Positions 344-36,237 are shown, numbered from the stretch's first letter. The stretch is DNA of 61,680 nt from a virus (IMGVR_UViG_3300036830_000246:1-61680), one strand, 5' to 3'. Translations and numbers: made by a program. Notes: a model not told the origin generated them from the sequence alone.

Positions 344-1320
344 CCATCCGCTCCCGGCTCGCGCGGGCGGAAGCGCTCGATCAGCTCGGGCTTGATCTTG
401 CAATCGGGATCGCCCGGTTTACCCCCGAGGTACGGTGCCCACGCGCCCGGCTCCCCGCCATCGAGTCCGTAGAACATCTTGAGGGCGTCGGTCTGCGCGC
501 GCTCATCCATGACGTGATGGCCGTTCATGTCGGTTTTCGTGCCGCCGCGCCCGCGCTCCTCGCGAGGTTTCGGCGTCAACGAAACGGCCTTCGTGTACCA
601 AGTCACCCAGGCGGCGGACCAATTCGCCATCTTCGAGCCGTTCGCTACGTGATGGGAATGGAATTTCTGAATCTCGTTTGCTCCCGTTGCCACTAGGTCC
701 GGCCGGCCGTTCGCTCGCCAGAACGCCGCTGCTCTGCGTTTGTCATCCGCGCTAGGTTTCCAATCTCCTATCGGCGCTCGCCTTGAAGCTGAGGATTTTT
801 TCCCTTCGCTCATCGGCTTCCCCCCTTGGGGGGATACAGGGGGGATGGTGAAGTCTGGTAGATGGTGAAGAACAACGGAATCTAGTGAAGCAGACTCAGT
901 GTTGAGAATCTCCTTCTCTCTCTCTCTCTTACTCTGTTTTCGTAAGCCATTGTTTTCGGCTATGTTGGCACCTGCCACCTCGGGCCGACCTCGGGCCGAC
1001 CCAGGGGGGGGTCGAGGCGAGGTCGTGCCGGGGTCTCGCCTACGCAAGACCTCGTCCGCCTTCTGATTTCGAAGCTCGTTCCGCTCGTCTACACGCAACT
1101 TCCCGTCTTCGATCAGCCTTTGTATGAGAAAAGAAACCTTTCTGCGATCGCACCCGATCCACCCCGCGATCCACAAAGGATCGTTCGGGCACCCTCCCTT
1201 TCGCTCGTACATGAGATCGAGGATTGTGTTGTAGACCGCGATGTAATCCGTCCCCTTGCCTCTACAGGCGTCGAGGATTTTTCTTGGTTCCCGTTTATAC
1301 CAGTCTTCCTTTTCCGCCAT
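340..1320 (-). CDS. Replication initiator, YdaU/DUF1376-like N-terminus
   Basis: WYKREP...YNTILDLMYERKGGCPNDPLWIAGWIGC...LIEDGKL. It is coupled to dnaB and contains iteron-like repeats. Confidence 0.75.
   Translation of the reverse strand: MAEKEDWYKREPRKILDACRGKGTDYIAVYNTILDLMYERKGGCPNDPLWIAGWIGCDRRKVSFLIQRLIEDGKLRVDERNELRNQKADEVLRRRDPGTTSPRPPPGSARGRPEVAGANIAENNGLRKQSKREREKEILNTESASLDSVVLHHLPDFTIPPVSPQGGKPMSEGKKSSASRRAPIGDWKPSADDKRRAAAFWRANGRPDLVATGANEIQKFHSHHVANGSKMANWSAAWVTWYTKAVSLTPKPREERGRGGTKTDMNGHHVMDERAQTDALKMFYGLDGGEPGAWAPYLGGKPGDPDCKIKPELIERFRPREPGADG
880..1035. other. Putative lambdoid-type replication origin inside the initiator gene
   Basis: ACCTCGGGCCG x2 in tandem (977-998), mirrored by 11-bp periodic GGTC units (1010-1035), next to a CT/AT-rich tract (880-960). 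Confidence 0.55.
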
Positions 1321-2819
1321 CACAGCCCCAGCTTGAGATCGGCTTGCGCCTGCGTCACGGCGGTCGTCTCGTTATCTCGCAAGGCGGATGCACCCATGTC
1401 GCACCAAATATCGACCTCGAATTCCGAACCGTGTCGGAATTTCAGGCCACAAAGGTCCATGCGGTTTTTCCACTGGCGATATTGCATTACCCAGGCCATG
1501 TATTCGGGGTCGTTTTCCCCGCCTTCCGGTCTTTCCTTTCCAATGTAATAAGCCTTCCGATAAGGCCCGATCACGATGTCGGCTTCGGCTTCGATCTGGC
1601 CGGATTCGCGCAAGTCCGAAAGGCGGGGCTTGCGGTCCTTCTCCTGGCGCTCTTCCGATTGCCTGTTCGTCTGCGAGCCCGCCATAACGGGCCAGCCGAG
1701 TTCTTTCGCCAGGTTCTTGAGCGAACTCGCAATGTGGCTGACGTGGCGTTCGCGCGATGTCCCGCGACCGAGATCGGATTCCCGGACCTTTTGCAGATAG
1801 TCGACCACGATGAGCCCCATTCCGCGGCCCTGATGGATCGAACGGAAGGCGCGCGCTTTGGCGCAAATCTCCTCCACCGTCAGGGTAGGCTCGTCGCAAA
1901 CCTCGTAATGCAGCATGGCGGAAAGCTCTTGCTGCATCAACACCATGCGTTCGAATTCCCGTGGCGTCAGGCGCGCACGGCGGAAGTTCTCGTAATACAG
2001 GGGCTTTTCCATCCCCATTTGCCGGCGGTCGAAGTCCAGGTCGCAGATGTTGCGGTCCGTCCACTGGGTTCCGAGCATTTCGAGGGAGAACGCTTGCACG
2101 GGGCGCCCCTCGGTCGCGGCCGATAGCGCGGAGGCGCACATGAGGGCGGATTTCCCCATGCCGGGGCGCCCGCAGACGATCACGAGATCACCTGGCCCGT
2201 AGCCGCCGATGAAGCCGTCGACGCGCTCGAAACCCGACGAAATGAGACCGTGGCCGCCGGTCGTCATGCGGTCTTCGATCGCCTTGATCGAGCGCTCGGC
2301 GAATTCCCCCGCGGGGCGCGGACGGTTGGAATTCAGGATCTTCGCGTGCTGGATGTGGATGCGCTGCATCGCGGCTTCCGCCCGCGCCATCACCTTCGCG
2401 GTGGGGAGTTCGAGCGGCTGCGCGTAGGCTTCGTTGACGAAGTCCTCCCCCGCGTGGATGAACTCGCGCCGGACGCGCAAGTCCGCGATAATCCTCGCGT
2501 ATTCGCGCACGGGCGGGCCGGCGGGCGCGGCCTCGGCCATTCCCGTGAGGTAAGCCAAGCCCCCGACTTGCATCATGCCGGGGTCGGCCTTCATGGCCGC
2601 ATGGAGGACGAGCGGCGTCACACGCACGCTGAATTCCCGCGTGAGCTCCAGCATGGCCTCGAACAGCCGTTCGTGCAGGGGGTCGTAGAAATCCTCGATC
2701 GCCAGCGTTTCCGCGGCTTTCTCAATCGCCAGATTGTCGATGAGGCAGTAGCCGAGGAGCGCTTGCTCGACGCGAACGTCAAAAGGGAGATGTCGATAGA
2801 CCGTCTCGGTCTTTGCCAT
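1320..2819 (-). CDS. dnaB: Replicative DNA helicase, DnaB family
   Basis: N-terminal EQALLG/DFYDPLH, Walker A GRPGMGKS, IVVDYLQ, SQTNR, PRLSDLRESGQIEAEAD. Confidence 0.95.
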   Translation of the reverse strand: MAKTETVYRHLPFDVRVEQALLGYCLIDNLAIEKAAETLAIEDFYDPLHERLFEAMLELTREFSVRVTPLVLHAAMKADPGMMQVGGLAYLTGMAEAAPAGPPVREYARIIADLRVRREFIHAGEDFVNEAYAQPLELPTAKVMARAEAAMQRIHIQHAKILNSNRPRPAGEFAERSIKAIEDRMTTGGHGLISSGFERVDGFIGGYGPGDLVIVCGRPGMGKSALMCASALSAATEGRPVQAFSLEMLGTQWTDRNICDLDFDRRQMGMEKPLYYENFRRARLTPREFERMVLMQQELSAMLHYEVCDEPTLTVEEICAKARAFRSIHQGRGMGLIVVDYLQKVRESDLGRGTSRERHVSHIASSLKNLAKELGWPVMAGSQTNRQSEERQEKDRKPRLSDLRESGQIEAEADIVIGPYRKAYYIGKERPEGGENDPEYMAWVMQYRQWKNRMDLCGLKFRHGSEFEVDIWCDMGASALRDNETTAVTQAQADLKLGL

Positions 2820-2833
2820 TGCAGCCCGCGCGA

Positions 2834-2926
2834 GAATCCCAGCCCGCCGAACCTACGGATTCAAGGTTACGATTCGCAAGGGAGAACGAATCGCTATTTT
2901 CATAGGGGTTAGTGATTCGTTCTCCC
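2834..2926. promoter_or_regulatory. Divergent promoter region with GANTC cluster and 17-bp inverted repeat
   Basis: GANTC at 2834, 2858, 2871, 2888 and 2914. Inverted repeat GGGAGAACGAATCGCTA (2880-2896) / TAGTGATTCGTTCTCCC (2910-2926), 16/17 match. Confidence 0.65.
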
Positions 2927-2929
2927 ACA

Positions 2930-3089
2930 ATGGATTGCGCCCGTTCCCGGAATTTGTGTTACACACGGATGCAGGTGGTGGCCGGTGGTTCGAATCCACC
3001 TCGCCTTTCGTCGCCCGCGCGCGGGCGCGGAAGCGCGATAACTCAGTGGTAGAGTGCCGCTCTCCCATTCTGGAGGCCCGTAATGCCAT
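2930..3089 (+). ncRNA. Circularly permuted tRNA-like RNA (YrlA-like topology)
   Basis: GGTGG (2974-78), variable loop TGGCC, T-arm GGTGG-TTCGAAT-CCACC (2984-3000), closed acceptor-like hairpin (3001-3038), TA, D-arm ACTC-AGTGGTA-GAGT (3041-3055), CCGCT (3057-61) pairing back to 2974-78. Outer stems 2947-53/3067-73 and 2930-39/3079-89. Confidence 0.75.
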
Positions 3090-3562
3090 CCACTTCCCGC
3101 AAGCAGCACCGTTTCATGGAAGCGATCGCGCACGACCGGGCTTTCGCGAAGAAGGTCGGTGTGGCACAAAGCGTTGGTAAGGATTTCACCGATGCGGACA
3201 AGACGTCCGGGCGCTACCAAGGGAAAGGGCACGACATGGCCAAGCACAAAATGGACGGCATGGACGGCATGGACGGCTCGAAGGGCATGAGCCCGCGCAA
3301 ATCCATGGCGGCGGGCATGACGCACGGCGGCGGGAATTTCGGCGTCGAAAGCTTCGCGGAAGGCAACGCCCACGGGGGCACGCATCCGGACGCGGCCAAT
3401 CACACGGGCCGCAAGGGCGCGATGGAAGACGGCGAACGCGGCATCGGCGAGCCCATCCATCACACGAAGCACCACCACCCTTCGCAGGCCGCGCCGCATC
3501 ACGGACCGCACCACGTCGACGGCTACATGAACCATCACGCCCGCGAACACGCGAAAGCGTAA
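3083..3562 (+). CDS. His/Gly-rich phage protein
   Basis: GGAGG RBS. N-terminal MPSTSRKQHRFMEAIAH...FAKKVGVAQSVGKDF is a recurrent phage motif. ATGGACGGC x3 at 3251-3277. Confidence 0.75.
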   Translation: MPSTSRKQHRFMEAIAHDRAFAKKVGVAQSVGKDFTDADKTSGRYQGKGHDMAKHKMDGMDGMDGSKGMSPRKSMAAGMTHGGGNFGVESFAEGNAHGGTHPDAANHTGRKGAMEDGERGIGEPIHHTKHHHPSQAAPHHGPHHVDGYMNHHAREHAKA

Positions 3563-3565
3563 CGA

Positions 3566-3638
3566 CGTTCACGTCGCCGCCGGTTCCGCGCCCTTCCTGG
3601 CAGATTGGTGTCTATTCGTAACCGGCGGCGGCGTGACG
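3566..3638 (+). other. Intergenic long stem-loop
   Basis: CACGTCGCCGCCGGTT (3570-85) pairs with AACCGGCGGCGGCGTG (3620-35), just before the RBS of the next gene. Confidence 0.6.
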
Positions 3639-3654
3639 ATCTCTGGAGGCCACC

Positions 3655-3888
3655 ATGGCAAAGCTCACGACCCGCCAGCGCAAAGCTCTCCCGAAGAAGG
3701 ACTTCGCCCTCTCGGGTGGTCGATACCCGATCAACGATCCCAGCCACGCTAGAAATGCCCTCGCGCGCGTTTCCCAGCACGGCACCCCGGAGGAAAAGGC
3801 GAAGGTCCGTGGCGCGGTCCATCGCAAATATCCCAGCATTGGCGCGCCCGAGCACCATTTCGCCCACGGGCGACCCCGAACGGATTGA
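3655..3888 (+). CDS. Small basic phage protein (DUF6582-like)
   Basis: LTTRQRKALPKKDFAL...RYPINDPSHARNALARVSQ; GGAGG RBS. Confidence 0.75.
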   Translation: MAKLTTRQRKALPKKDFALSGGRYPINDPSHARNALARVSQHGTPEEKAKVRGAVHRKYPSIGAPEHHFAHGRPRTD

Positions 3889-3946
3889 CGGATTCATCGC
3901 GGCCACTTTGGCCCCATGCGAAGCCGACGGCGGAATGCCCGAGGCA

Positions 3947-3986
3947 GAAAAGGCCCGGAGGACCATCCTGCCGGGCCTTTTCGTTT
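3947..3986 (+). terminator. Rho-independent terminator, possibly bidirectional
   Basis: GAAAAGGCCCGG...CCGGGCCTTTTCGTTT. Confidence 0.75.
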
Positions 3987-4012
3987 GCGAACGAACGAGG
4001 AACTGGCATTGG

Positions 4013-4122: not shown

Positions 4123-4665
4123 ATGGCCAAGCACAGGCCGCGCGATGCCGTTGATCCCAAGCGGCGCAAGCGCCGCACGCCGCCGAAGCGCAGGATCGCT
4201 TTCGACCCCCGCTGGGTCGCGCAGGCGACGCGGCTGGCGTCGGAAGACTGGACGGATGTAGAGATCGCGGCGTTCTTCAAGATCAGCCCCCGCCAGCTCT
4301 ATCGCTACAAGATCGACTATCCGGCTTTCGCGAAGGCCTTCGTCCGCGGGGAGGAACAGCGAACCCGCATGGTCGAAAACGCCCATTTCCAGCGCGCGGT
4401 CGGGATCGTCGTTCCCGCCACGAAGATCCTTCAACACCAGGGCAAGCCGATCATCATTCCCTACGAAGAACACTTGCCGCCAGACGTCAACGCGCAGATC
4501 AGCTATCTCAAGGCCTACAAACCCGGCCGGTATCGGGAACGTCTGGAGCTCGGCAGCGACCCCACGATGCCGATCCGCTTCATCATCGACGGGCGCGATG
4601 AAACCCCCGCTCCACCGAAGGCAAAGGAGTCCAAGCTAGATGGAAAACGACGAAAAGGACGCTGA
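4123..4665 (+). CDS. terS: Terminase small subunit
   Basis: HTH WTDVEIAAFFKISPRQLYRYK, HLPPDVNAQISYLK; lies upstream of terL. Confidence 0.85.
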   Translation: MAKHRPRDAVDPKRRKRRTPPKRRIAFDPRWVAQATRLASEDWTDVEIAAFFKISPRQLYRYKIDYPAFAKAFVRGEEQRTRMVENAHFQRAVGIVVPATKILQHQGKPIIIPYEEHLPPDVNAQISYLKAYKPGRYRERLELGSDPTMPIRFIIDGRDETPAPPKAKESKLDGKRRKGR

Positions 4666-7086: not shown

Positions 7087-10000
7087 ATGGCCGTCATTGA
7101 ATCCACGACCATGCCGGGGTCCGCCCTCCCGCCGCTGCCTCAGGTCCGCATGGCCCCGCAGACGGAAGAACAGACGATCGAGGACACGGACGACGAACGG
7201 GAAGAGGGGGAAGACGATCGCAAGATCGTGCCAGAGCCCGAGTACGATTCCTCCAAGGCGCGCCTCGTCGCCTGGATCGCGGATCACAATATCGCGCGCC
7301 ACCTCGATTTCGACACGCTGCAAAAGATCGGCCAGGAGGTTTATCGCGGCTACGAGATGGACGAGAACTCGCGCGCGGAATGGAAACAAGATACCGAGGC
7401 CGCGTTGCGGTTCGCTACCCAAGAGGCCCAGCCGAAGCAATATCCGTGGCCCAAAGCTTGCCTATCGTTGGATACCGACATCCTTACCGAAAATGGTTGG
7501 AAGCCGATCGCCGATGTAGTGCCGGGTGAGCGGGTTTATAGCCGAGCCCCCGATGGGGCGGCGGATTTCTTTCCGGTAAGCAGAACCTTCCGGCACGTCG
7601 CCGAGGAAGTTGTGCATTTCCATGGCAAAAGCATCGACCTGCTTGCCACTCCGAACCACAATATGCTGGTGGAGGACCGGGACACGGGCGCCACGTCCTT
7701 TATTCAGGCTGGCGAATTCGTGCGCCGCCATGCGAAAGGGCCAAATCAATTCTGCCTGTCCCGCAAATCCATTCCACTCACTTCGGCATGGCGCGGAGAC
7801 AATCCCACCAAGGTCTATGGCATTGATGGCGCCGCTTATGCACGCTTCCTCGGCTGGTACGTGTCAGAAGGGTTCTGCGATAGACCAACGGGCAGTTTCG
7901 GGATTGCCCAAAGCAGGCGCGCAAATCCCCGAAAATACGAGATTCTGCGCCATGACATAGAAGCCTGCGGGTTTACCTATCAGGCCCGCGAGGACGGTTT
8001 CACTGTCCACGCCCGTTCGATGCCGGACTTGTTTAAGGCCGAGCTGCGAGCGCTCGGAACCGCATATTCAAAGCACCTTCCCCGCCATGTTCTTTCTTAT
8101 GCGCCTGAATTGCTTGAGCAAGTTCTGGATACATTGGTCGCGGGAGACGGCCGTGTCCGCCAAAGGGCGCATCAACGGCAACGGAACCGCACGTATTTTA
8201 CCACGTCGTCCCTGCTCGCCGGACAGGTGCAGGAAATCTGCCAGAAACTCGGAATGCGTGGCTCGGTAACGACCGTCGAGGCCAGAGCGGGCGGCGTCAT
8301 CAACGGCAGGGCAATTATCGGAGCCGCTGAGGGCTATTCCATCAGCATCGCAACAAAAGCGACTATCCAAGTCCTCAAGTTGGCGCGCGAACTTCAGTCG
8401 TTCAATGACGAGGTAGCGTGCGTCGAGGTTTATCCACACAACACGATTTACGTCCGGCGCAAGGGTAAAGCCGTGTGGGTGGGGAATTCCAACATCATCT
8501 ATCCCCTCATTACAGCGGCATCGCTCCAGTTTGCCGCGAAGGCCTATCCCGCGATCGTGCCGAACCGCAACGTCGTGAAGGGCATCGTCTGGGGCACGGA
8601 CGATGGAATGCCCGCGACACAGACGGGCAAGATGGGCGGCGCGCCGTTGCTCGACCCGCAAAGCGGCCAGCCGCAATGGCTCATCCCGCCCGGCAGCAAG
8701 CGCAAGCACGCGGATCGCGTGGGCGCGCATATGTCGTGGCAGCTGCTTGTGGAGATGCCCGAATGGGAGCCGCAGACGGACCAGATGCTCCATCAGCTTC
8801 CGATCGTCGGCGGCGCCGTGCGCAAGACGTTTCGCGATTACGCAGAAAAGCGCAATTGCTCCGTCCTCGTGCCGCTGATGAACATCGTGTGGGACATGAA
8901 CGCGGAATCCTTCGAGGTCGCGCCCCGCCACACGGAGATCCTGACCCTCTACCCGCACGAGATCACGACGAACGAGCGGGCGGACGAAACTTTCCTCACC
9001 CTCAATTACGGCCCGTCGGACGATGACGGCGCGGACCCGAACGACGATCAGGCCCCGCATGTCTTTCTCGAACAGCACACACGTTACGACTTGGATGGCG
9101 ACGGTTACGCGGAGCCGCTCACGGTCACGATCCACAAGCGGTCCCAGCGGGTCGTGCGCATCACCGCGCGCTTTGAAGAGCCTGGCATCAAGGAGACGGA
9201 TTACCAGGACGACGAAGACGAGGAAATCCAGTCCATCCAGGCGCTTGGCCATTACACGCTCTATTCGTTCCTGCCCAACCCCAAGGGCGGCTCGTATCCG
9301 GTAGGTTTCGGCCACCTTCTCAAGCCCATGAACGAGGCGATCAACACCTCGATCAACCAGATGTTCGACGCCGGCCATCTCCAGATCGCGGGCGGCGGCT
9401 TCATCGGCACGAGTTTGTCGATCCCGTCTGGGCCCACGACGTTCCAGCTCGGCGAATACATCCCGGTCAACAACAAGGGCCAGTCGATCCGCGACGCCGT
9501 CTTCCCTATTCCGTTCCCCGGTCCCAGCGAAGTGCTCTTCCAGCTGCTGGGCTTCCTCGTTTCCGCGGCCGAGCGAACCGCTGCCGTACAGGATGTCTTG
9601 ACGGGGGATTCTTCCAGCCTCGCGAACACGGCCCCCACGACGATGCTCGCGCTGATCGAGCAGGGGATGAAGGTCTACACGGCGATTTACAAGCGCATTT
9701 ACCGGGCGCTGAAAGAAGAGCTTGCGAAGCTCTATCGCCTCAACCGCCTCAACATGGAGGACGACCAGCGCTTCCAAATGGGGGACGACTGGCAGGAAAT
9801 CAGCCCTGAGGATTACCGCCTCGGCGGCGGGGTCGAGCCCATGGCGGACCCCACGATGGTCACGGACATGCAGCGCCTCGGGCGCGCGGGTGTCCTGCTC
9901 CAGTTCAAGGACGATCCTCTTTTCCAGCCGCTCGAAATCCGCCGCCGCTATCTCGAAGCCTGCGGAATCGAGCAGATCGACAAACTTCTGCTGGAGAAAA

Positions 10001-10455
10001 TGCCGCCACCGGTGGCGATGCAAGCGGACCTCGCGCTCAAGCAGGCCGAGCTCGGCCGCGTCCGCGCGGCCGAGATCAAGGACCAAACGCAGGGCATCCT
10101 CAACATGGCGCTCGCCCGCGCGAAAGCGAATGGCCCGGAGATCGAATGGTTCGAGAAACAGATCGACATCATGCGTCTCCACATCGAGGCCCTGAACACC
10201 ACCGTGAAGGCTGCGGACGTCGACGCGAAATTCCACGGCCACAACGTCCACATGCAGGCCGCGCAGCAAAAAGCCAGAGAGGTAGCGAACAATGAACCAA
10301 CCCCAACTCCCCCACCGGAATCCGCTGGCCCAATCAATAACGGACAGGGAATTCCAGCTGTGGCGCCACCACCCGGTAACGGAAATGGTTCTGCTCTTCC
10401 TCCAGGACCAGGTGACGAATTGGCGGGCGGCAGCGGCGGAGCTTTGGGAGGCTGA
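7087..10455 (+). CDS. Portal protein containing an intein
   Basis: DENSRAEW, PWPKA|SNIIYPLITAASLQFAAKAY, GFGHLL...NEAINTSINQMFDAG, TTMLALIEQG..VYTAIYKRIYR; follows terL. Confidence 0.92.
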   Translation: MAVIESTTMPGSALPPLPQVRMAPQTEEQTIEDTDDEREEGEDDRKIVPEPEYDSSKARLVAWIADHNIARHLDFDTLQKIGQEVYRGYEMDENSRAEWKQDTEAALRFATQEAQPKQYPWPKACLSLDTDILTENGWKPIADVVPGERVYSRAPDGAADFFPVSRTFRHVAEEVVHFHGKSIDLLATPNHNMLVEDRDTGATSFIQAGEFVRRHAKGPNQFCLSRKSIPLTSAWRGDNPTKVYGIDGAAYARFLGWYVSEGFCDRPTGSFGIAQSRRANPRKYEILRHDIEACGFTYQAREDGFTVHARSMPDLFKAELRALGTAYSKHLPRHVLSYAPELLEQVLDTLVAGDGRVRQRAHQRQRNRTYFTTSSLLAGQVQEICQKLGMRGSVTTVEARAGGVINGRAIIGAAEGYSISIATKATIQVLKLARELQSFNDEVACVEVYPHNTIYVRRKGKAVWVGNSNIIYPLITAASLQFAAKAYPAIVPNRNVVKGIVWGTDDGMPATQTGKMGGAPLLDPQSGQPQWLIPPGSKRKHADRVGAHMSWQLLVEMPEWEPQTDQMLHQLPIVGGAVRKTFRDYAEKRNCSVLVPLMNIVWDMNAESFEVAPRHTEILTLYPHEITTNERADETFLTLNYGPSDDDGADPNDDQAPHVFLEQHTRYDLDGDGYAEPLTVTIHKRSQRVVRITARFEEPGIKETDYQDDEDEEIQSIQALGHYTLYSFLPNPKGGSYPVGFGHLLKPMNEAINTSINQMFDAGHLQIAGGGFIGTSLSIPSGPTTFQLGEYIPVNNKGQSIRDAVFPIPFPGPSEVLFQLLGFLVSAAERTAAVQDVLTGDSSSLANTAPTTMLALIEQGMKVYTAIYKRIYRALKEELAKLYRLNRLNMEDDQRFQMGDDWQEISPEDYRLGGGVEPMADPTMVTDMQRLGRAGVLLQFKDDPLFQPLEIRRRYLEACGIEQIDKLLLEKMPPPVAMQADLALKQAELGRVRAAEIKDQTQGILNMALARAKANGPEIEWFEKQIDIMRLHIEALNTTVKAADVDAKFHGHNVHMQAAQQKAREVANNEPTPTPPPESAGPINNGQGIPAVAPPPGNGNGSALPPGPGDELAGGSGGALGG
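7459..8487 (+). mobile_element. Intein (343 aa) with LAGLIDADG homing endonuclease
   Basis: Starts CLSLDTDILTENGW; block B ATPNHNM; endonuclease motifs FLGWYVSEG and LDTLVAGDG; ends VRRKGKAVWVGN|S. Visibly lower GC than the flanks. Confidence 0.92.
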
Positions 10456-27055: not shown

Positions 27056-28327
27056 ATGGCCGGAGCAATCCCGGACTTCACGATTCAGCAGCCGAATTAC
27101 CTGAACGTCTCGCGCGATGCGATGAACTATCAGGATCAAATGGCGCTGCGCCCCGATGCGCTGGCTGCCAGACAGGCAGAACTCCAGAAGGAAAGCGCGC
27201 TTGCGCCGCTCGACGTCCAGGCGGCACAGCAGAAAAGCGCACTCGGCAACATCGACTATGCAAATCAGCTCGTCGCGCAGGCCGCGCGTGCGGCGCAAAT
27301 GGCCGATCCCGCGGACGCCCCGCAAATCTGGGACGACGCGATGCAGAAGGCCGCGGCTGCGGGCTCGCCGAACGCGCGCCAATACATCGGTCATTACCGC
27401 CCGGACCTTGCTGAAAAGGTCGTCGGCACCTTCGGCACCCAGACGCAGGGCAGCCAGCGCGGCGCCGGCGCTGCGGCCGGGGGCTCTCCCGCGACCGATC
27501 CCATGGCGGTCGATCGCGCGGTCGCGCAGATGTCGCCGGATGTGATGCAGAAAGGGATCGTGAACATGAACCGCGCGATCTCGGGCTTTAACAACATCAA
27601 GGACGAGCAATCGTGGAACGACGAGCTCGACCAGCTGCGCCAGGCCGGCATCCCGGTGGAAACCCTCCTGCCGAGCACGGAATGGAATCCCATGAACTAC
27701 GCGGCTGCGTACAAGGCCGTGCAATCCATCGCGCCTTACAGGGATGCGATCGCGCGCCGGCTCGCGATTTCGTCCACTGGTATGAACCCCGCGGCGCCGC
27801 CGCCCATGTACGAGCCGAACCAGCAATACATTGGCATCGACCCGAACACGAAGCAGCCCGTCTATCACGACGTCCACGGTGGTCCCGACACGCTGGGACA
27901 ATTCCCCGTGGGCCCGAAGCCGAGCGCTTCAACGTCGAACTTCCTCGCCAAGCAGCAAGCATGGCTGGCCGTGCATCCGAACGATGATTCCGGCGCGCTC
28001 GAATTTGCCAACGGCAAGCGCAACATGGATCCCGCGCAGATGCGTCTCGGCGCGCAGAACGCCGCTTCGCGCGAGCTCGCGAATCTCGCTTTGACGCCCG
28101 AGGGGATGAACATCGCGGACCCGCAAACGTGGGTGAAGAACCGCACGGAGGAAATCTACAACTCCATGCAATCCGCACAGGCACCCGCGCCTGCGGCCAG
28201 CCCCGCGCCTTCCCAGCTTCCCGCCCGTGCCATGCAGGCCGTGAAGGCCGCGAACGGCAAGCCCGTGCGCTTCAATAACGGCCACTCTTATGTTTGGAAG
28301 AACGGTAAAGCCGTCGCGGTGCAGTAA
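27056..28327 (+). CDS. DNA ejection / internal virion protein
   Basis: Gln/Ala-rich helical protein between the pilot and the giant protein. Confidence 0.7.
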   Translation: MAGAIPDFTIQQPNYLNVSRDAMNYQDQMALRPDALAARQAELQKESALAPLDVQAAQQKSALGNIDYANQLVAQAARAAQMADPADAPQIWDDAMQKAAAAGSPNARQYIGHYRPDLAEKVVGTFGTQTQGSQRGAGAAAGGSPATDPMAVDRAVAQMSPDVMQKGIVNMNRAISGFNNIKDEQSWNDELDQLRQAGIPVETLLPSTEWNPMNYAAAYKAVQSIAPYRDAIARRLAISSTGMNPAAPPPMYEPNQQYIGIDPNTKQPVYHDVHGGPDTLGQFPVGPKPSASTSNFLAKQQAWLAVHPNDDSGALEFANGKRNMDPAQMRLGAQNAASRELANLALTPEGMNIADPQTWVKNRTEEIYNSMQSAQAPAPAASPAPSQLPARAMQAVKAANGKPVRFNNGHSYVWKNGKAVAVQ

Positions 28328-31300
28328 TGTCCGGGGCGGGAACTGATCCGTGGGGCGTCGCGAGCGATACCGCACCCTCTGCGCCAGTTGACGGCTGGCT
28401 GCCGAGCGAGCAGCAAGCAAACGAAGCTATCCAGGGCATTGCGCCAGGCTCCGTCGTAACCTCGGAAGCCCGGACGGCGGAACACAATGCCGCCGTGGGT
28501 GGCGTCCCGGATTCCATGCACGTCGGCGGCCAGGCGATGGATTTCGTGCTTCCGAAGGGAATGACGGCCGATCAAGTGAAGGCGCAGCTCACCGCGCAAG
28601 GCTATCCCGTCAGTGAATTCCTCAACGAAGGCGACCACATCCATTGGGGCTGGCGCCCGAAGGGCAATGTCGGCCCCGCGCCAGCCGATCCGTGGGGCGT
28701 GCAAGGTTCGGAATCGGACCCGTGGGCGCCGGCGCAACAGGCCGCCGCGCCGGTGCAACAGAAACCCGCTCCCGTACAACCAGCCGAATCCAGCTGGGCG
28801 GACGTCCTCTCGAAACAGGTAGAGAACACGCCCGCGCGCATGAAGCAGATGATCGCGGGTCTCTTTCAGGGAATGGCGGAGACGAACCCCAGCTTGATGC
28901 CGCGTGGTGCCGCGATGATGGACACCTTCACGCCGCCCGCGCCCGAGACGAAGCAGGATGCGGCCGACCGCGCGAAAGTTTCCCAATGGGCTGCGGGCGT
29001 CTACGCGACGGCTGCCCAACAGATCAAGGAGAACTCCCCGCAGCTGAACGACGGCTCCGTGAAGGACGTGGCATCGAAGGTTCTGGCGGGCACGATCGAC
29101 ATGGTGCCGCTTCTCGCCGCCACGGCCGTGACGCGCAATCCGCTCGTTGGCGCAGCCATGATGGGTGGCCAAGCCGCTGGCGAATCGTATGGCGCCGCGC
29201 GCGCTTCTGGACGCACGCCCGATCAAGCGCGTCTCGATTCTCTCTTCACCGGCACGGTCAATGGCGCGCTCGGCTCCCTGCCGCTCGGCGTCCTGATGAA
29301 GCCCGGCCAGACTTTCCTCGGAAAGACCCTCCAGAGTGCGGGCACATTCGGCGCCGTGTCGGTGATGACCGAGGCTCTCCAGCTCGGCTACGACCGCGGC
29401 CTCGTCAATCCGAACATGACCTTGAGCGAGGCGTGGCAGCGCCTCAAGGATGCGGGCATTACGGGCACGCTCCAAGGCGCGCTCCTCGGCGGTGGCCACG
29501 CGGGACTGGAAAAGGCCATATCGGGATTGCGCGCTCAAACGGCACCGGTGGAAGCCCGTCAGGAGCCCAGCGCGGCCTCTACAGAGGCGCCAGCCGCCGC
29601 CGCGCCTCAACCCACGCCCCACCCGGACCTCGCGGCCTCGATTGGGCTCACGAGCCCCGGTGTGGCGCCGAAGGTCGATCCGTGGGCCGTTGCGCCCGAG
29701 GCACTTGTTCCCACGCCGAACCCCGAGGTCCCACCTTCCTTCCGCACGACGCCCGCCGCGATTGCGGGCGAGCACGAGCTCGAAGTCGCCCGGCTGGAGA
29801 GCGAGGGCGCGCAAGCCGCCGCCGCGAAGGCTCCGGCCCCCACGACAGAGCTCCCCCCCATCGCCTCGCGGCCGGTGGCAAAAGATGTCGCGCTCACGGC
29901 CACGGGCCGAGAAGTGCCCGTCGAGTATGCGGTCGTGGACGCGCGCCAGCTCGTTCCGAGCCAGACGCAAGAAGGTGCGCCAAACCCCGCTTATCCGCAG
30001 GAGCTCCAGCCGCGCGATCGCACGCGGGCGGCATCGCAGGCCCAGATTTCCTCGATCGCGCAGAACCTCAACCCCCGTCTCCTCGACCGTTCCCCCGTGG
30101 CAAGCGATGGCGCGCCGATCATTGCGCCCGACGGCACGGTGGAATCCGGCAATGGCCGCACGCTGGCGATCCAACGTGCCTATTCCGAAGGATTGCCGGG
30201 GGCGCAAGCGTATCGCGCGCATCTCGCCCAGCAGGGCTATCCCGTGGAAAACATGGACGCCCCCATGCTCGTGCGCGTGCGTGAAGGCACGATGACGCCG
30301 GAGGACCGGCAGGCCTTCGTCCGCGAGGCGAACAACTCCGGCCAGCTCGGCTATAGCGCGACCGAGCGCGCGACCACGGACGCGGCTGCGATTCCGGCTT
30401 CCGCCCTCGATCTCTATCGCGGCGGCGATGTCGATGCGGCGGCGAACCGGCCCTTCGTCCAGGCTTTCTTCCGCAATGCCGTGAGCCCTGGCGAACAAGC
30501 GACGATGATCGACCGCGAAGGGCGTTTGTCACAGGAAGCCGTCCGGCGGCTGAACGGCGCCCTCCTTGCCAAGGCTTACGATGCGCCGGATCTCGTCTCC
30601 GCCGTAGTGGAAAGCCCCGACACGAACATCAAGGCAATCGGGGGCGCGCTGACAGATGTCGCGGGCGACTGGTCGCAAATGCGCGCGCTGGCCCGAAACG
30701 GCGACATTCCGCCCAATCTCGACCAGACGGACAAACTCCTCGCCGCCGTCCGGCTCGTCGACCAGGCCCGCGCGGAAGGCCGCAATGTCGCGGAATACGT
30801 CGGGCAGAAGGATATGTTTACAGGCGAGGCGCTCGACCCCGACACGGAGGCGTGGTTGCGCCTCATGTTCCGCAACACGCGGGACTGGACGAATCCCGTC
30901 GGACGCGAGAAGCTCGCGACGGCCCTGCGGTTTTACGCCCAGGAGGCCCGCAAGGCGCGGGCGAGTGGCAACCTCCTGGGGCTCGAACCAACCGGGCCGA
31001 CGGATATTCTCGGCATCGCGAAGGAGCGCCAGGGTGGCGGTCAAAGGGACAATGGCGCAGCGGGCCCATCGCTTTTTGCTGGCGCGGACATTCGAGAAGG
31101 CGGCGGAGCAGGAGCCGGACCCGGCCTTGAAGCGCCAGCGCCTGGAAGAAGCACAGGCGATGAGACAGGTCGCGCTCAATCCGCCGAAGGCGCCAATCCG
31201 CCACTAAACCAAACGCTGCTCCAGCGTGAAGAGGAAAAGCCAGCGTTTTTCTCCGCCCTCACGCGCGGGGTCGAAGGCCTGAACCTCAAGCGCGCGCCGG

Positions 31301-34300
31301 CGAAAGATTGGCTGGGCGCGATCGAGAACCTGAAAAACAAAGGTGTGAAGGGCGAAGAGATCGACTGGTCCGGCGTGCGCGACTGGCTGCGCGAGCAGCC
31401 GGGAACAGTGACGAAAGAGCGAGTGGCGGATTTCCTGCGCGATCACGAAGTCCAAGTCCAGGAAGTCGAACAGGGTGCACCGCACGAGCCGCCTGCGATT
31501 GCGGAGAAACGCGACCGCTTTCAGGAACTCAGCGATAAGGATCAAGGCCAAGAAGGTCTATCGAAGGCCGAGCATGACGAAATGGACAAGCTGCAAGACG
31601 AGCTCTTCCAGCAACCCAACCCATGGCTGAAAGCCAAAGACGCCAAATACGGCGAATACACGCTGCCGGGAGGCAGGAATTACCGTGAACTCCTCCTCAC
31701 GCTACCCGAGCGCGCGCGGGAATTGCCCGAGGGCTACACCGTCAAGCCCTTCCAGAATGGCTGGGGCGTCTTTGGACCGATGGGGGAGGAAGCGTGGGCA
31801 CCGACTCGCGGCGGCGCGCTCGCAAATGCACAGCCGCGTTTGCGCATGCTCCACGGGGAGTCGCCCACCTATCGTTCCGGCCATTGGGACGAGCCCAACA
31901 TTCTCGCCCATGTGCGTTTCGACGACCGCACGGGACCGAACGGCGAGAAGATCCTCCACATGGCGGAGGTGCAGAGTGATTGGCACCAACAGGGACGGCG
32001 CCGTGGCTACCAGGAGGGCAGGCCGGTCCAAATGCCCCGCGTCTCGCCCAAGGATCTAACGATTGAGGAGGGAAGCCACGACTGGAAGGGCACCGCACCG
32101 GACGGAAAGTTCACCGCAAAGGTGGGGAAAGGCATCGTTGCCGACGAGGCCGAGGCGCGCCGCTACCTCGCGCGGTACATCAATGAGGCCAAAATCGACC
32201 CCTACAACGAAGACGTGGTGCGCAGACACCGGTACCAAGTCCCGAACGCCCCCTTAAAAACCTCGTGGCACGAGCTCGCGATGAAGCGGATGCTGCGTTA
32301 CGCGGCCGAGCACGGCTACGACAAGCTCACTTGGGACACGGGCGAAACCCAGGCCGCGCGCTACGATCTCTCGAAGCACATCGACCACATCGAGCTGCGC
32401 GACAACGAAACGGGGGGCGTGGGCAAACCGTCGATGGAAGGTGAATTCACGTCCGGCCGCGTGATCGCCTATGACCATCAGGGCCAGCAGGTGATCGACC
32501 GTCACGTCAACAGCCCGGAAGAGCTCGTAAATCTCATCGGCAAGGATGCGGCGGACAAAATTCTCAAGGTGACGCCCAAGGCGGGACGGGAAAGTGGCTT
32601 GGGCCACCGCGTTCGCGATCTTCCAAAGGCCGACCTCAAGGTCGGCGGCGAGGGGATGAAGGGCTTTTACGACAAGATCCTCCCGCAATTCCTGTCGAAA
32701 TACGCGAAGAAATGGGGCGGGAAAGCAGGGCGTGGGGAGATCGTCCCAAAATTCACCGTTCAACGCTCGCGTCCACACATCAATGGAAAGTATGAGGTTC
32801 TCCAGCCGCACGGTCTGCCGATTCTCACTAGCGAGATGCGGACTCATCTCTTCGATACCAAAGAGGCCGCAGAGGCATTTGCGCGCGAAGAGGCAAAGAA
32901 ATCAGCCACCCCGACTCATTCGGTCGACATCACGCCGGAAATGAAAAAATCCGTGATGGAGGGGCAGCCGCTTTTCCGCAAGGAAGCGAAGCCGTTCGGG
33001 CGTGCGACGAAGCCCAACGCCGCCGGCATGTCGAAGGTCGCGGACGACATCATTGGCCGCTTGCCCGCGAAACCAAGTGCGGCGGAACAGAAGGTGCTCG
33101 ATCGCGTGGCCGAGATCGCGCGCGAGATCGTCCCGCGCGCGACGACGGTCGCGGCCCACGAGCTCCGGCAGGTCGAGCCCGGCACCCAGCGGTCCATTTT
33201 GGACAAAGGCACGCGGGTCGCGGGCGCGACGGCGATGAACGGCTCACGGCGCCTCATCGCGTGGTCGCTCTCCTCCCGCGATCCCGTCGGCACGATGCGC
33301 CACGAGGCTATTCATTGGCTCAAAGCCGAGGGCTTCCTCACTCCCGGCGAATGGTCGACGCTCGAACGCGCAGCCCAGACGGGGAACTGGCTCGGCCGCC
33401 ACGGCATCACGAGGCGCTACGCGGACCTTCACCCAGAAGGCCAAATCGAGGAAGCGATCGCGGAGCAATTCGGGCAATGGCGCCGGGCATCGAGCGCGGT
33501 CCCGCACATCGTCCGGCCGATCTTCGACAAGATTTCCCGCCTGCTCGGGCGCGTGGGGGATTTCCTGCGGAAATCTTTCGGGTCGAGCGCAACGGCGGAA
33601 GACATCTTCCATCGCATCGAGGCCGGGGAAGTCGGGCGGCGCGCCGTGGCGCTTCCCAACGGCCGCTCGACCAAGCTCGAACGCGCGCAGGACGAGACCG
33701 ACATCCGGGATTTCGGAAGCCGGGTGAAAGAGGGTGCGGCAAAAGTCATGGACCTCGTGCACGACGTCCAGATGCTCGTCGCGCCGATGGCGGAAGGCGG
33801 CATGGAATCCCGTGCGGCCGCGAAGGATTTCGCCAACCTCATGCGGCTCGCGCGCTACCACGGCAATCGCATGATGGAAGGGCTGAAAAAGGACTTCGCA
33901 CCCTTCGAGCTCAAGCGCATGTGGGAAGCGGCGGACGAGGAGTCCGTCGCGCGCCAGCAGGGCAAACCAACGGAAAATGTCGGCCTATCGCGCCTTACAC
34001 CACGCGAGCGCAATGCCGTGATGGAACAGCAAGCAGATGCGCAAGCCGTATGGGAGGCCGCGAAGGCGCAAGGCATGGTGCAGGGAGAGGGCTTGCCGTC
34101 CTACGTCCCCCGCATGATGGTCGACATGGCGGAAGGCTCGGCAAAGCGGCTCGGCTCCTCGACGGACGGCGCGCGCTCGATCCCCGGCATGGGGCGGAAT
34201 GTGCGCACCTCAACGCCCCAGATGTTGCACAGGAAATACCTCACGACGGGCGAGACCGAAGGCGCGGCGTCGAAGAAGTTCGAGACCAACGCCGAAGTCG

Positions 34301-36237
34301 TGAGGGATTTGCGCACGCTCCCGCTCGCGACCATGCGGTTGCGCGAGGCCGTGGCGGGCCGCGCCCTCATCAACCAGATCAAGGAGATCGGGCGCCGCAC
34401 GGGTGAGGACACTGTTGTGGAGGGCCACCATCCCGATACGCCCGGCTGGTTCACGCTCGATAATCCGGCCTTCAAGACATGGCGCCCGAAGTTCATCAAG
34501 GACGAACTGACGGGCAAATACGTCGCTGCGACAGACCAAAACGGCGAGCCTGTGTTCGAAAAGGTTCCGATTTACGTCCGCTCGGATTTCGAAGGTCCGC
34601 TGCGGTCGGTCCTGACGGAGCCGAATTCCAAGGTCTACAACGCCCTCATGGCCCTCAAGGGCAAAGCGATGACGACGATCATGTATTCGCCGCTCATCCA
34701 CAATGCCGTCGAATGGGGCCGCGCGTTCCCCGCCATGCCTGGCAAGGTCGCGACGCTGAGGGTGTATTTCGAAGGCAACCGGGCGAAAAACGATCCCGCG
34801 ACCATGACGGAGGCGATCCGCCACGGGCTCGTGCCGATCGGCAGCCGCGCGGGCGGGATGCAAGACATCACGGGCATCGCGGATGCGGACTCGGTCAAGG
34901 CCGGCCGCTCGTGGACGGCGAAGATCCTCGGCGCCGTCCCGGGTTTGTTCAATCCGAAAGCCAAGGAAGCCGTCTATCGCGCGATCGACGCGATGGGGGA
35001 CGTTTGGCACAACACCCTCCTCTGGGACCGCGTCGGCGACCTCCAAATGGGGCTCTACACGGGGCTGCGGGACCAAATGATCCGCAAGGGCTTCGCGCCG
35101 TCCTCCGCCCAATACGAAGCCGCCCATCTCGCAAACCGCTACGCTGGCGCGCTCCCGGTCGAAGCAATGTCGGGTTTTTCCCGCAAGATCGCCAATCTCA
35201 TGCTGTTTTCCCGCAGCTACACGCTGGGCAATTTGGGCGCAATGAAGGACGTCTTCACCGGGCTGCCGCGCGATGTCCAGGCGCAGATCGAGCGCGATGC
35301 CGGCACGGCAGAGCTCAACAAGGTGAAAAGCTATGCCAGGCGAAAATCCACCGTGATCTTGCTGACCGACATCGCGATGTTTTATGCGACGAATTCCCTC
35401 CTGGCCTCTGCCGTCGCGTATCTCGCGGGGCGCCAGGATCTCAGCACCGTCCAGAAGGGCTATGTCGACCGCATGAATGCCCTCATGCAGAAGACGAACG
35501 ACAGCCCGCTTGAACTCCTCAACCCGTTCGCGGACCTCCAGGCGTTGTCGGCTACGAACGAAAACGAACCCGGCCGGGAAAACCGCGTGCTCGTCGGGTA
35601 CGACAAGGACGGCACGGCCATTTATGCCCGCGTGCCGACGGGCAAGATCGGCGAGGAATTCACGAACTGGATTACGTCGCCGCTGCAAACCTTCAAAAGC
35701 AAACTCGGCACGCTCGCGCGCCCGACCTATGAGACGATCGCGAACGATGCAGGCTTCGGCCACAAGGTCTACGACCCCAAGGGCTCGACCCTCCAGGCAC
35801 TGGGCAATATCGCGCAGCTTTATCTCGGCTCCCAAGTGCCGCTCGATTCCCTCAAATCCGCCGCGCAGCTGATGGAGGGAAAGGGCAAGGTGATCGACAT
35901 GTACAAGACCGCGGGTCCGCTTGCGGGCGTGACGTTCTCCAAAGGTGCGCCCGGCGGTCCGGCGGTCGGCGCGTATTACAATCTCAAGGAGCGCCAGCAG
36001 GCACGCCTCCAGGAAGCGCTCCCGGACATCCACACGAAATTCGACGGCGGTGACCGCGCGGGCGCAATGCGCGATCTCGTGGCGGCGGGCGCGGCACCGG
36101 GCCTCGCACGCTGGTATCTCAAGGTGTGGAGCGATCCCAGGCTGCGCGCGAACCCGCGGGCGGTAAACAAGCTCCTCCTTCGTGCTACACCGGAAGAGCG
36201 CGAAGAATATCAACGCACGACAGGAGCTCCTCCATGA
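28327..36237 (+). CDS. Giant polyvalent internal virion protein (peptidase M15, ddrB-like ParB, zincin and other domains)
   Basis: 2636 aa. SMHVGGQAMD...HIH (M15); NPAYPQELQPRDR...GAPII...VESGNGR (ddrB-ParB); EVQSDWHQ; HEAIH...EEAIAE (zincin). Confidence 0.85.
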   Translation: MSGAGTDPWGVASDTAPSAPVDGWLPSEQQANEAIQGIAPGSVVTSEARTAEHNAAVGGVPDSMHVGGQAMDFVLPKGMTADQVKAQLTAQGYPVSEFLNEGDHIHWGWRPKGNVGPAPADPWGVQGSESDPWAPAQQAAAPVQQKPAPVQPAESSWADVLSKQVENTPARMKQMIAGLFQGMAETNPSLMPRGAAMMDTFTPPAPETKQDAADRAKVSQWAAGVYATAAQQIKENSPQLNDGSVKDVASKVLAGTIDMVPLLAATAVTRNPLVGAAMMGGQAAGESYGAARASGRTPDQARLDSLFTGTVNGALGSLPLGVLMKPGQTFLGKTLQSAGTFGAVSVMTEALQLGYDRGLVNPNMTLSEAWQRLKDAGITGTLQGALLGGGHAGLEKAISGLRAQTAPVEARQEPSAASTEAPAAAAPQPTPHPDLAASIGLTSPGVAPKVDPWAVAPEALVPTPNPEVPPSFRTTPAAIAGEHELEVARLESEGAQAAAAKAPAPTTELPPIASRPVAKDVALTATGREVPVEYAVVDARQLVPSQTQEGAPNPAYPQELQPRDRTRAASQAQISSIAQNLNPRLLDRSPVASDGAPIIAPDGTVESGNGRTLAIQRAYSEGLPGAQAYRAHLAQQGYPVENMDAPMLVRVREGTMTPEDRQAFVREANNSGQLGYSATERATTDAAAIPASALDLYRGGDVDAAANRPFVQAFFRNAVSPGEQATMIDREGRLSQEAVRRLNGALLAKAYDAPDLVSAVVESPDTNIKAIGGALTDVAGDWSQMRALARNGDIPPNLDQTDKLLAAVRLVDQARAEGRNVAEYVGQKDMFTGEALDPDTEAWLRLMFRNTRDWTNPVGREKLATALRFYAQEARKARASGNLLGLEPTGPTDILGIAKERQGGGQRDNGAAGPSLFAGADIREGGGAGAGPGLEAPAPGRSTGDETGRAQSAEGANPPLNQTLLQREEEKPAFFSALTRGVEGLNLKRAPAKDWLGAIENLKNKGVKGEEIDWSGVRDWLREQPGTVTKERVADFLRDHEVQVQEVEQGAPHEPPAIAEKRDRFQELSDKDQGQEGLSKAEHDEMDKLQDELFQQPNPWLKAKDAKYGEYTLPGGRNYRELLLTLPERARELPEGYTVKPFQNGWGVFGPMGEEAWAPTRGGALANAQPRLRMLHGESPTYRSGHWDEPNILAHVRFDDRTGPNGEKILHMAEVQSDWHQQGRRRGYQEGRPVQMPRVSPKDLTIEEGSHDWKGTAPDGKFTAKVGKGIVADEAEARRYLARYINEAKIDPYNEDVVRRHRYQVPNAPLKTSWHELAMKRMLRYAAEHGYDKLTWDTGETQAARYDLSKHIDHIELRDNETGGVGKPSMEGEFTSGRVIAYDHQGQQVIDRHVNSPEELVNLIGKDAADKILKVTPKAGRESGLGHRVRDLPKADLKVGGEGMKGFYDKILPQFLSKYAKKWGGKAGRGEIVPKFTVQRSRPHINGKYEVLQPHGLPILTSEMRTHLFDTKEAAEAFAREEAKKSATPTHSVDITPEMKKSVMEGQPLFRKEAKPFGRATKPNAAGMSKVADDIIGRLPAKPSAAEQKVLDRVAEIAREIVPRATTVAAHELRQVEPGTQRSILDKGTRVAGATAMNGSRRLIAWSLSSRDPVGTMRHEAIHWLKAEGFLTPGEWSTLERAAQTGNWLGRHGITRRYADLHPEGQIEEAIAEQFGQWRRASSAVPHIVRPIFDKISRLLGRVGDFLRKSFGSSATAEDIFHRIEAGEVGRRAVALPNGRSTKLERAQDETDIRDFGSRVKEGAAKVMDLVHDVQMLVAPMAEGGMESRAAAKDFANLMRLARYHGNRMMEGLKKDFAPFELKRMWEAADEESVARQQGKPTENVGLSRLTPRERNAVMEQQADAQAVWEAAKAQGMVQGEGLPSYVPRMMVDMAEGSAKRLGSSTDGARSIPGMGRNVRTSTPQMLHRKYLTTGETEGAASKKFETNAEVVRDLRTLPLATMRLREAVAGRALINQIKEIGRRTGEDTVVEGHHPDTPGWFTLDNPAFKTWRPKFIKDELTGKYVAATDQNGEPVFEKVPIYVRSDFEGPLRSVLTEPNSKVYNALMALKGKAMTTIMYSPLIHNAVEWGRAFPAMPGKVATLRVYFEGNRAKNDPATMTEAIRHGLVPIGSRAGGMQDITGIADADSVKAGRSWTAKILGAVPGLFNPKAKEAVYRAIDAMGDVWHNTLLWDRVGDLQMGLYTGLRDQMIRKGFAPSSAQYEAAHLANRYAGALPVEAMSGFSRKIANLMLFSRSYTLGNLGAMKDVFTGLPRDVQAQIERDAGTAELNKVKSYARRKSTVILLTDIAMFYATNSLLASAVAYLAGRQDLSTVQKGYVDRMNALMQKTNDSPLELLNPFADLQALSATNENEPGRENRVLVGYDKDGTAIYARVPTGKIGEEFTNWITSPLQTFKSKLGTLARPTYETIANDAGFGHKVYDPKGSTLQALGNIAQLYLGSQVPLDSLKSAAQLMEGKGKVIDMYKTAGPLAGVTFSKGAPGGPAVGAYYNLKERQQARLQEALPDIHTKFDGGDRAGAMRDLVAAGAAPGLARWYLKVWSDPRLRANPRAVNKLLLRATPEEREEYQRTTGAPP

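Follow-up and report, generated by a model that had tools for sequence, protein, structure and literature searches.

The locus between the replication and structural genes

The virus studied here, IMG/VR record IMGVR_UViG_3300036830_000246, is represented by a complete genome with direct terminal repeats. The whole stretch of 61,680 bp was analysed and is referred to below as the window; its G+C content is 62.7%. A minus-strand block at 340-2819 encodes a primosomal or replication-initiation-like protein and a DnaB-like replicative helicase (1320..2819, minus strand; Pfam DnaB_C 8.6e-55 and DnaB 2.1e-20; phrog_19 6.3e-81). The structural (late) block lies on the plus strand. Its first gene, at 3083..3562, encodes a protein of 159 residues (phrog_16759 1.5e-20), and the block also contains genes for the small and large terminase, portal, capsid and tail. 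The two blocks are divergent and 263 nt apart, and this gap holds a tRNA-like element, between dnaB and the late genes as the initial annotation had placed it. The dnaB gene is transcribed away from the element, whose end (3068) is separated from the ATG at 3083 by 14 nt.

The start codon at 3083 is secure. The N-terminal domain of the 159-residue protein is widespread in phages, since viral contigs contain 226 relatives whose matches cover the N-terminal residues, and a TAG stop codon at 3050-52, in frame with the ATG, excludes an upstream start. The gap also contains an inverted repeat (2880..2926) with 17-nt arms that are 94% complementary and are separated by a 13-nt spacer. Its arm motif has no other exact occurrence in the window, and the repeat is a possible operator for two divergent promoters. 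A scan of 2600-3400 for promoters and terminators identified no sites, and a search for sequencing runs that might show expression listed none, of either RNA or DNA. The genome has no integrase or resolvase gene, and the idea that the element is an integration scar was dropped for this reason.

Terminase and portal matches, considered as clues to the host, reach at most 42% identity and are scattered over many hosts, and the gene context in the isolated phages Rhizobium phage RHph_TM3_14A and Pseudomonas phage Rollin is not syntenic with the window. There is a gene for a GcrA-like cell-cycle regulator (54834-55418, minus strand; Pfam GcrA 3.8e-17), a protein with no counterpart among isolated phages. 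GcrA is not known outside Alphaproteobacteria, and the gene suggests an alphaproteobacterial host. Two further genes are worth mentioning. The portal protein (7087-10455, plus strand; 1,122 residues) aligns with the portals of other phages only from about residue 460-466, and so carries a long N-terminal extension. A protein of 2,636 residues (28327-36237, plus strand) has a Peptidase_M15 domain at its N terminus as well as a ddrB-like ParB domain; this giant is probably part of the virion or ejected from it.

A circularly permuted derivative of tRNA-Gly(CCC)

The stretch 2974-3068 (plus strand) holds all the parts of a tRNA-Gly(CCC) in rotated order: positions 39-76, the 3' third, come before positions 1-38, the 5' part. 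It begins with the 3' strand of the anticodon stem, GGTGG (2974-78; tRNA positions 39-43), followed by the variable loop TGGCC (2979-83; positions 44-48) and the T-arm GGTGG-TTCGAAT-CCACC (2984..3000). Next comes a closed, extended acceptor-like hairpin of 38 nt (3001..3038), with a CGCG loop and no CCA. Within this hairpin TCGCCTT (3001-07) corresponds to tRNA positions 66-72 and AGCGCGA (3032-38) to positions 1-7, and the two acceptor strands are joined through a GC-rich palindromic extension of 24 nt (3008-31) into a single closed helix. The helical segments are TCGC/GCGA, CTTTCG/CGGAAG and CGCCCG/CGGGCG, interrupted by two bulges (T3011 and C3034), and all 16 pairs are standard. The hairpin is followed by U8 and A9 (TA, 3039-40), the D-arm ACTC-AGTGGTA-GAGT (3041-55), G26 (3056) and the 5' strand of the anticodon stem, CCGCT (3057-61; positions 27-31), which forms five pairs, two of them G-U, with 2974-78. 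The last segment is a seven-nucleotide anticodon-loop sequence, CTCCCAT (3062-68; positions 32-38, including U33, CCC and A37), beyond which lies the Shine-Dalgarno sequence GGAGG (3072-76). The sequence elements described in the initial annotation are all where it had put them. The nucleotides that make tertiary contacts in tRNA are all present, namely U8, A14, G15-C48, G18G19, T54-A58, C13-G22-G46 and A9-A23-U12.

The initial annotation had read the loop as that of a glycine tRNA with anticodon CCC. When the halves were rejoined in silico, ARAGORN called tRNA-Gly(ccc) in three of nine joins, those that keep the 7-nt loop (3032-3068 attached to 2974-3007, -3008 or -3011), which bears out this reading. 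The other six joins have a shorter loop and gave a tcc or ambiguous glycine call. In the drawing of the rejoined tRNA, acceptor pairs 1-72, 2-71 and 3-70 are A-U, G-U and C-C. A tRNA-Gly of a Caulobacter phage aligns collinearly with 3032-3078, beginning at the 5' strand of the acceptor and reaching the variable loop. CCGCT pairs better with the upstream GGTGG (5/5) than with the local downstream TCTGG (3/5). The latter belongs to a possible second, diverged copy of positions 39-48, TCTGGAGGCC (TCTGG AGGCC; 3069..3078, plus strand), which is identical to 2974-83 at 7 of 10 positions and contains the Shine-Dalgarno sequence. An internal duplication, in which another tRNA copy would extend into the gene in decayed form, was also considered. 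Its local alignment score of 14 compares with 13.95 +/- 2.3 for shuffled sequences, 273 of 500 of which scored as well; the similarity is inseparable from chance and an internal duplication is thus unproven.

The element lacks the contiguous cloverleaf and open acceptor end of a canonical tRNA. ARAGORN finds no tRNA or tmRNA gene in the whole window, and the Rfam tRNA model gives no match at E <= 10 locally or at E <= 1 over the window. We conclude that 2974-3068 is a circularly permuted derivative of tRNA-Gly(CCC), broken between positions 38 and 39 and sealed at the acceptor end.

Folded on its own, the 88-nt core adopts the T-arm, hairpin, D-arm and a closing stem, with a minimum free energy of -44.3 kcal/mol; compared with 300 shuffled sequences, z is -2.4. 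The initial annotation gave the closing stem a register that is 3.3 kcal/mol less favourable than this fold. Partition-function calculations in four sequence contexts predict that the Shine-Dalgarno bases GGAG (3072-75) are mostly paired, with an unpaired probability of about 0.05-0.3. Their predicted partners are CUCC at 3062-65 (probability about 0.5), in the anticodon-like loop, or the coding bases 3086-91 (0.56-0.92). A3083 and U3084 of the start codon are predicted to be unpaired.

Relatives, YrlA and viral closed-acceptor modules

A blastn search with 2600-3600 against 50,697 phage records gave no match, and the element alone gave only short matches to tRNA arms, the best being 81.4% over 42 nt with an E of 6. 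A DnaB query found no relatives in viral contigs, and a terminase query found seven loci. Rfam searches found nothing on six of these, and a covariance model custom-built from the element found nothing on any of the seven, nor on the 80 loci with relatives of the downstream gene that were covered alongside them (0 of 87 in all). A motif pair combining the T-loop and D-loop likewise occurs in none of these 80, out of the 226 loci with downstream-gene relatives. The closest homologue of the downstream gene (locus L023; 71% over residues 1-144) does not have the element in the 3 kb upstream of the gene. Judged by terminase, the nearest phage is L200 (64% identity), which has a homologous downstream gene at 381 and no tRNA-like sequence in the 380 nt upstream; the gene there follows a 173-nt gap and has a different neighbour. 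The initial annotation had named conservation in relatives as one test of its own proposal, and none was found at L200 and L023, which hold the two nearest homologues of the downstream gene, or at the 87 related loci.

Pattern scans were equally unproductive. A scan of metagenomes matched at least 120 loci, and among the matches listed none resembled the element, 105 being tandem tRNAs, 10 overlapping one tRNA and five overlapping none. The 5' half of a parental tRNA-Gly(CCC) had no match in two pattern scans of genome contigs. In viral contigs, a 21-nt string from the T side was found at four loci (two ordinary tRNAs and two unrelated T-arms) and a 20-nt string from the D side at none.

At gathering thresholds, Rfam reports no family in the window. 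When thresholds are relaxed, YrlA (RF02553; 28.1 bits, E 0.066) alone reaches E <= 1 over the window; its topology had been noted in the initial annotation. The match spans 2965-3084 and the full model, 1-114, with the tRNA-like module aligned, and has an E of 5.4e-4 in a search of 501 nt. YrlA has been found in 22 bacteriophages as well as in bacteria such as Rhizobium etli, in a survey confined to genomes that carry TROVE (Chen et al., 2014; PMC4201824), and its structure has been described (Wang et al., 2018; bioRxiv 10.1101/312249). Chen et al. (2014) characterise YrlA by a tRNA-like domain with nearly invariant D and T stems, by a GNCGAAN0-1G motif near the 5' end that is the likely Ro60 contact, and by a Ro60/TROVE gene no more than 4 kb away and in the same orientation.

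The element shares with YrlA the order of T stem-loop, acceptor-like (AS) stem-loop and D stem-loop, together with the tRNA tertiary-contact nucleotides. It differs in four respects. First, the score of 28.1 bits is below the YrlA gathering cut-off of 69 bits, although this cut-off is strict for phage copies, since among the matches listed the viral modules described below score only 31-45.1 bits, and even the TROVE-linked L132 reaches only 45.1. Second, the Ro60 motif is deleted: the covariance-model alignment has ACGG---AUGC in the element against acggCgaAUGC in the model, and 2801-3100 contains no full GNCGAAN0-1G, only GCCGAA at 2846 with the closing G missing. The initial annotation had likewise seen no clear Ro-binding helix. 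Third, it had seen no Ro60/TROVE gene, and indeed TROVE (PF05731) has no match in the complete 61,680-bp record, in a search whose control matched 2 of 14 genomes. Fourth, the T stem is GGUGG/CCACC where YrlA has GCGGG/CCCGC, and the D stem ACUC/GAGU where YrlA has GCUC/GAGC, a sequence present in 24 of 25 aligned viral modules among the matches listed. Both stems fit tRNA-Gly instead, and a D-arm with A10-U25 is the form found in bacterial tRNA-Gly genes among the metagenome matches listed. The element thus shares its topology with the tRNA-like module of YrlA and yet is probably no Y RNA of the Ro60 type. The passages covered on YrlA and phage describe no phage YrlA without Ro60.

A strict pattern combining a T-arm and a D-arm matched at least 119 viral loci. 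The matches listed comprise 82 tandem tRNAs, six that overlap one tRNA, and 31 that overlap none and have a closed hairpin between the arms; two of these 31 (L086 and L113) overlap Rfam tRNA matches with long inserts and are ambiguous. Eleven of the 31 module-bearing records listed encode TROVE, and the 20 that do not include 10 with DUF2828 and four with DUF7873. In the four cases inspected (L329-L332), the DUF2828 or DUF7873 gene adjoins the module. Among the matches listed, 11 records are at least 90% complete, with TROVE in four, DUF2828 in four, DUF7873 in two and none of the three in one. In the genome studied here, DUF2828, DUF7788 and DUF7873 have no match either, and a tblastn search with 68 proteins of the window against all element-bearing loci found no neighbour gene in common with the module-bearing loci. 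Being complete, without any of these four domains and without a shared neighbour gene, it is an outlier even among phage copies.

It is worth adding some observations on the viral modules themselves. In three viral contigs without TROVE, a DUF7873 (PF25283) gene is directly upstream of a closed-acceptor module with a long hairpin: in L329 the gene is at 3244-3990 (plus strand) and the module at 4149-4216, in L332 at 1520-2275 (plus strand) and 2894-2954, and in G007 at 7558-8295 (minus strand) and 7235-7302. DUF7873 may be an unrecognised protein partner of closed-acceptor RNAs. DUF2828/DUF7788 proteins adjoin the modules of L330 (4513-5895, minus strand) and L331 (2202-3923, plus strand), and one of the two has a weak match to vWA_Ro60, below the cut-off (E 0.0022); DUF2828 could be a Ro60-like substitute. 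Sequence searches of the PDB with DUF7873 and DUF2828 proteins gave nothing significant, and a literature search for DUF2828 returned only unrelated papers.

Ten TROVE-less modules (L095, L102, L121, L124, L156, L157, L165, L166, L167 and L169) have in common a CAGCA(A/T) 5' flank and a C(T/C)(T/G)GT 3' flank around the outer helix, and they look like a distinct subclass. There are tRNA genes or T-arm motifs near the modules of L121, L124, L156, L165, L166 and L169. In L085, the 3' part of a GOLLD RNA (1-177; 91.5 bits) ends at the contig edge and adjoins tRNA genes and a closed-acceptor module. Rfam tRNA matches of 99-141 nt occur in L113 (429-569), L086 (309-423) and L169 (419-517), all on the minus strand, and the long inserts in these genes are possibly introns.

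Origin, possible functions and comparison with known RNAs

A tRNA-Gly gene is the most likely source of the element, which would have originated independently of YrlA and solely within this phage lineage. Its D-arm with A10-U25 and its retained anticodon loop argue for such an origin and against descent from YrlA. The diverged copy of positions 39-48, whose similarity is at chance level, hints at the route and suggests a tandem duplication that was trimmed on both sides.

On the basis of these observations, our best reading, put forward tentatively, is that the late-operon leader contains a mimic derived from tRNA, young and specific to this lineage, and that it acts in cis. Its position between the divergent blocks, ending 14 nt before the ATG, makes it most likely that late-operon transcripts include it as their 5' leader; given that no promoter or terminator was recognised in 2600-3400, transcription as a leader is an assumption. 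The full set of tertiary-contact nucleotides implies that the leader would fold into an L-shaped mimic of tRNA, which host factors that recognise tRNA might then read in cis.

One such factor may be RNase P. In Mycobacterium smegmatis, YrlA is bound by Rsr and encoded upstream of rsr, and its 7-pair acceptor stem is the determinant for RNase P, cleavage being followed by CCA addition (Chen et al., 2014; PMC4201824). The acceptor-like helix of the element similarly has at least seven pairs, but unlike that of M. smegmatis YrlA its third or fourth pair is disturbed by a C-C mismatch or a bulge, and this could hinder RNase P. Cleavage is proposed here by analogy. By this analogy RNase P would cut 5' of A3032, 51 nt upstream of the ATG, and the late mRNA would then begin with a structured end that resembles a tRNA. 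The Shine-Dalgarno sequence is itself built from tRNA-like sequence and can form weak pairs with CUCC in the anticodon-like loop. Against a role as a cis-acting leader, no homologue was found, and there is therefore no covariation and no sign of purifying selection; the intact arms may mean simply that the element is young.

The strongest competitor, which we consider somewhat less probable, is that a phage tRNA-Gly was duplicated or rearranged at a module junction and left a non-functional scar, too young to have lost its likeness to a tRNA, of which only the 3' edge was co-opted as a ribosome-binding site. This would account for a singleton that is missing from the nearest relatives and from the 87 related loci, that sits precisely where two gene modules meet (L200 has another neighbour there), and whose local anticodon arm is degraded, with three of five pairs, in a genome with no other tRNA and none of the partner proteins TROVE, DUF2828, DUF7788 and DUF7873. 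It explains other features less well. Two independent trims that give exactly one full set of tRNA parts are unlikely without selection, and decay does not explain how a near-perfect palindrome lengthened the acceptor helix from 7 to 16 pairs. Both arms are perfect and the tertiary-contact nucleotides are all kept; tight intergenic space is moreover usual in phages.

An unlikely alternative is a trans-acting orphan, in which the element would be made as a separate small RNA, or processed into one, that binds host Ro60 (Rsr) or competes for tRNA-directed enzymes such as anticodon nucleases. The YrlA topology fits this proposal, as does the suggestion that competitive inhibition of anticodon nucleases is one possible role of the YrlA tRNA-like domain (Hughes et al., 2020; PMC7790460). 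Viral contigs often carry closed-acceptor modules (31 of 119 among the pattern matches listed), and the GcrA-like gene points to an alphaproteobacterial host, a group in which R. etli has YrlA (PMC4201824). On the other hand, GNCGAAN0-1G is missing, the 3' end has no terminator and leads straight into the ribosome-binding site and ATG, and 10 of the 11 module-bearing records that are at least 90% complete, among the matches listed, encode TROVE, DUF2828 or DUF7873, where this genome encodes none.

The initial annotation had also proposed that outer stems close the tRNA-like module over the ribosome-binding site and ATG as a switch that gates late translation. The complementarity that it described is present, the 5' strands (2930..2953) comprising 2930-39, which can form 10 pairs with 3079-89 (one G-U, one bulge), and 2947-53, which can form seven with 3067-73 (one G-U). 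When 2925-3095 is folded to minimum energy, the outermost helix does form, and the Shine-Dalgarno sequence is indeed predicted to be mostly paired. The sequestering itself is not supported, and such a switch is improbable: the flank duplex is not above chance (best -19.9 kcal/mol against -16.6 +/- 3.4, with 85 of 500 shuffled 5' flanks as good), the whole 171-nt stretch has a z of only -1.83 (11 of 200 shuffles fold as well), 2947-53 is never the main Shine-Dalgarno partner in the four contexts, where CUCC or the coding bases take this place and leave A3083 and U3084 unpaired, and there are no homologues in which covariation could be sought.

A more far-reaching version of the cis-acting leader is equally doubtful, namely that the late mRNA carries a Ro60-independent permuted tRNA-Gly mimic with which it senses, or lures away, enzymes of the host that act on tRNA. 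The Shine-Dalgarno sequence would then be released from CUCC once RNase P, or an anticodon nuclease acting on the exposed CUCCCAU loop, recognises or cleaves the mimic. In this way the structural genes would be translated according to the state of host tRNA processing or tRNA-targeting defence.

The value of the element hinges on its transcription and its handling by the host tRNA machinery. Should it prove functional, inside-out tRNAs must have evolved on more than one occasion and can work without Ro60, perhaps as an mRNA leader, and the element would offer a simple, testable substrate for finding the host factor by which the tRNA elbow is read. Should it be no more than a scar, it captures the birth of such RNAs.

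Comparison with known systems helps to place it. YrlA-type tRNA mimics have been defined through their link to Ro60, and here is a copy with no partner, apparently derived independently from tRNA-Gly and joined to a ribosome-binding site. Like YrlA, it has a T-arm, closed acceptor-like stem-loop and D-arm in this order within a closing helix that resembles an anticodon stem, with the tertiary-contact nucleotides present and no free CCA end. Unlike YrlA, it keeps a complete 7-nt anticodon-loop sequence, it has no Ro60/TROVE gene within 4 kb or elsewhere in its genome, and it is fused to a ribosome-binding site and start codon, whereas YrlA ends as a small RNA.

The second system is the two-piece (permuted) tmRNA of Alphaproteobacteria, in whose precursor the acceptor strands are joined by an intervening loop. 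In both, the T-arm and acceptor 3' strand are encoded ahead of the acceptor 5' strand, but tmRNA lacks the full D-arm and anticodon stem that the element has. The only match among tmRNA families is to cyano_tmRNA, with 8.8 bits over 17 nt of the T-arm, and ARAGORN calls no tmRNA; this identity was rejected.

Among the titles and abstracts listed for permuted tRNA and phage, none concerns a bacteriophage element of this kind. In permuted tRNA genes the 3' half is upstream of the 5' half, an order that the element reproduces. In the red alga Cyanidioschyzon merolae such genes mature through a circular RNA into functional tRNAs, a pathway that is not known in bacteria. The acceptor pairs A-U, G-U and C-C of the element do not fit the known bacterial glycine identity. 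The break in the element at 38/39 falls in the anticodon loop, adjoining the canonical intron site.
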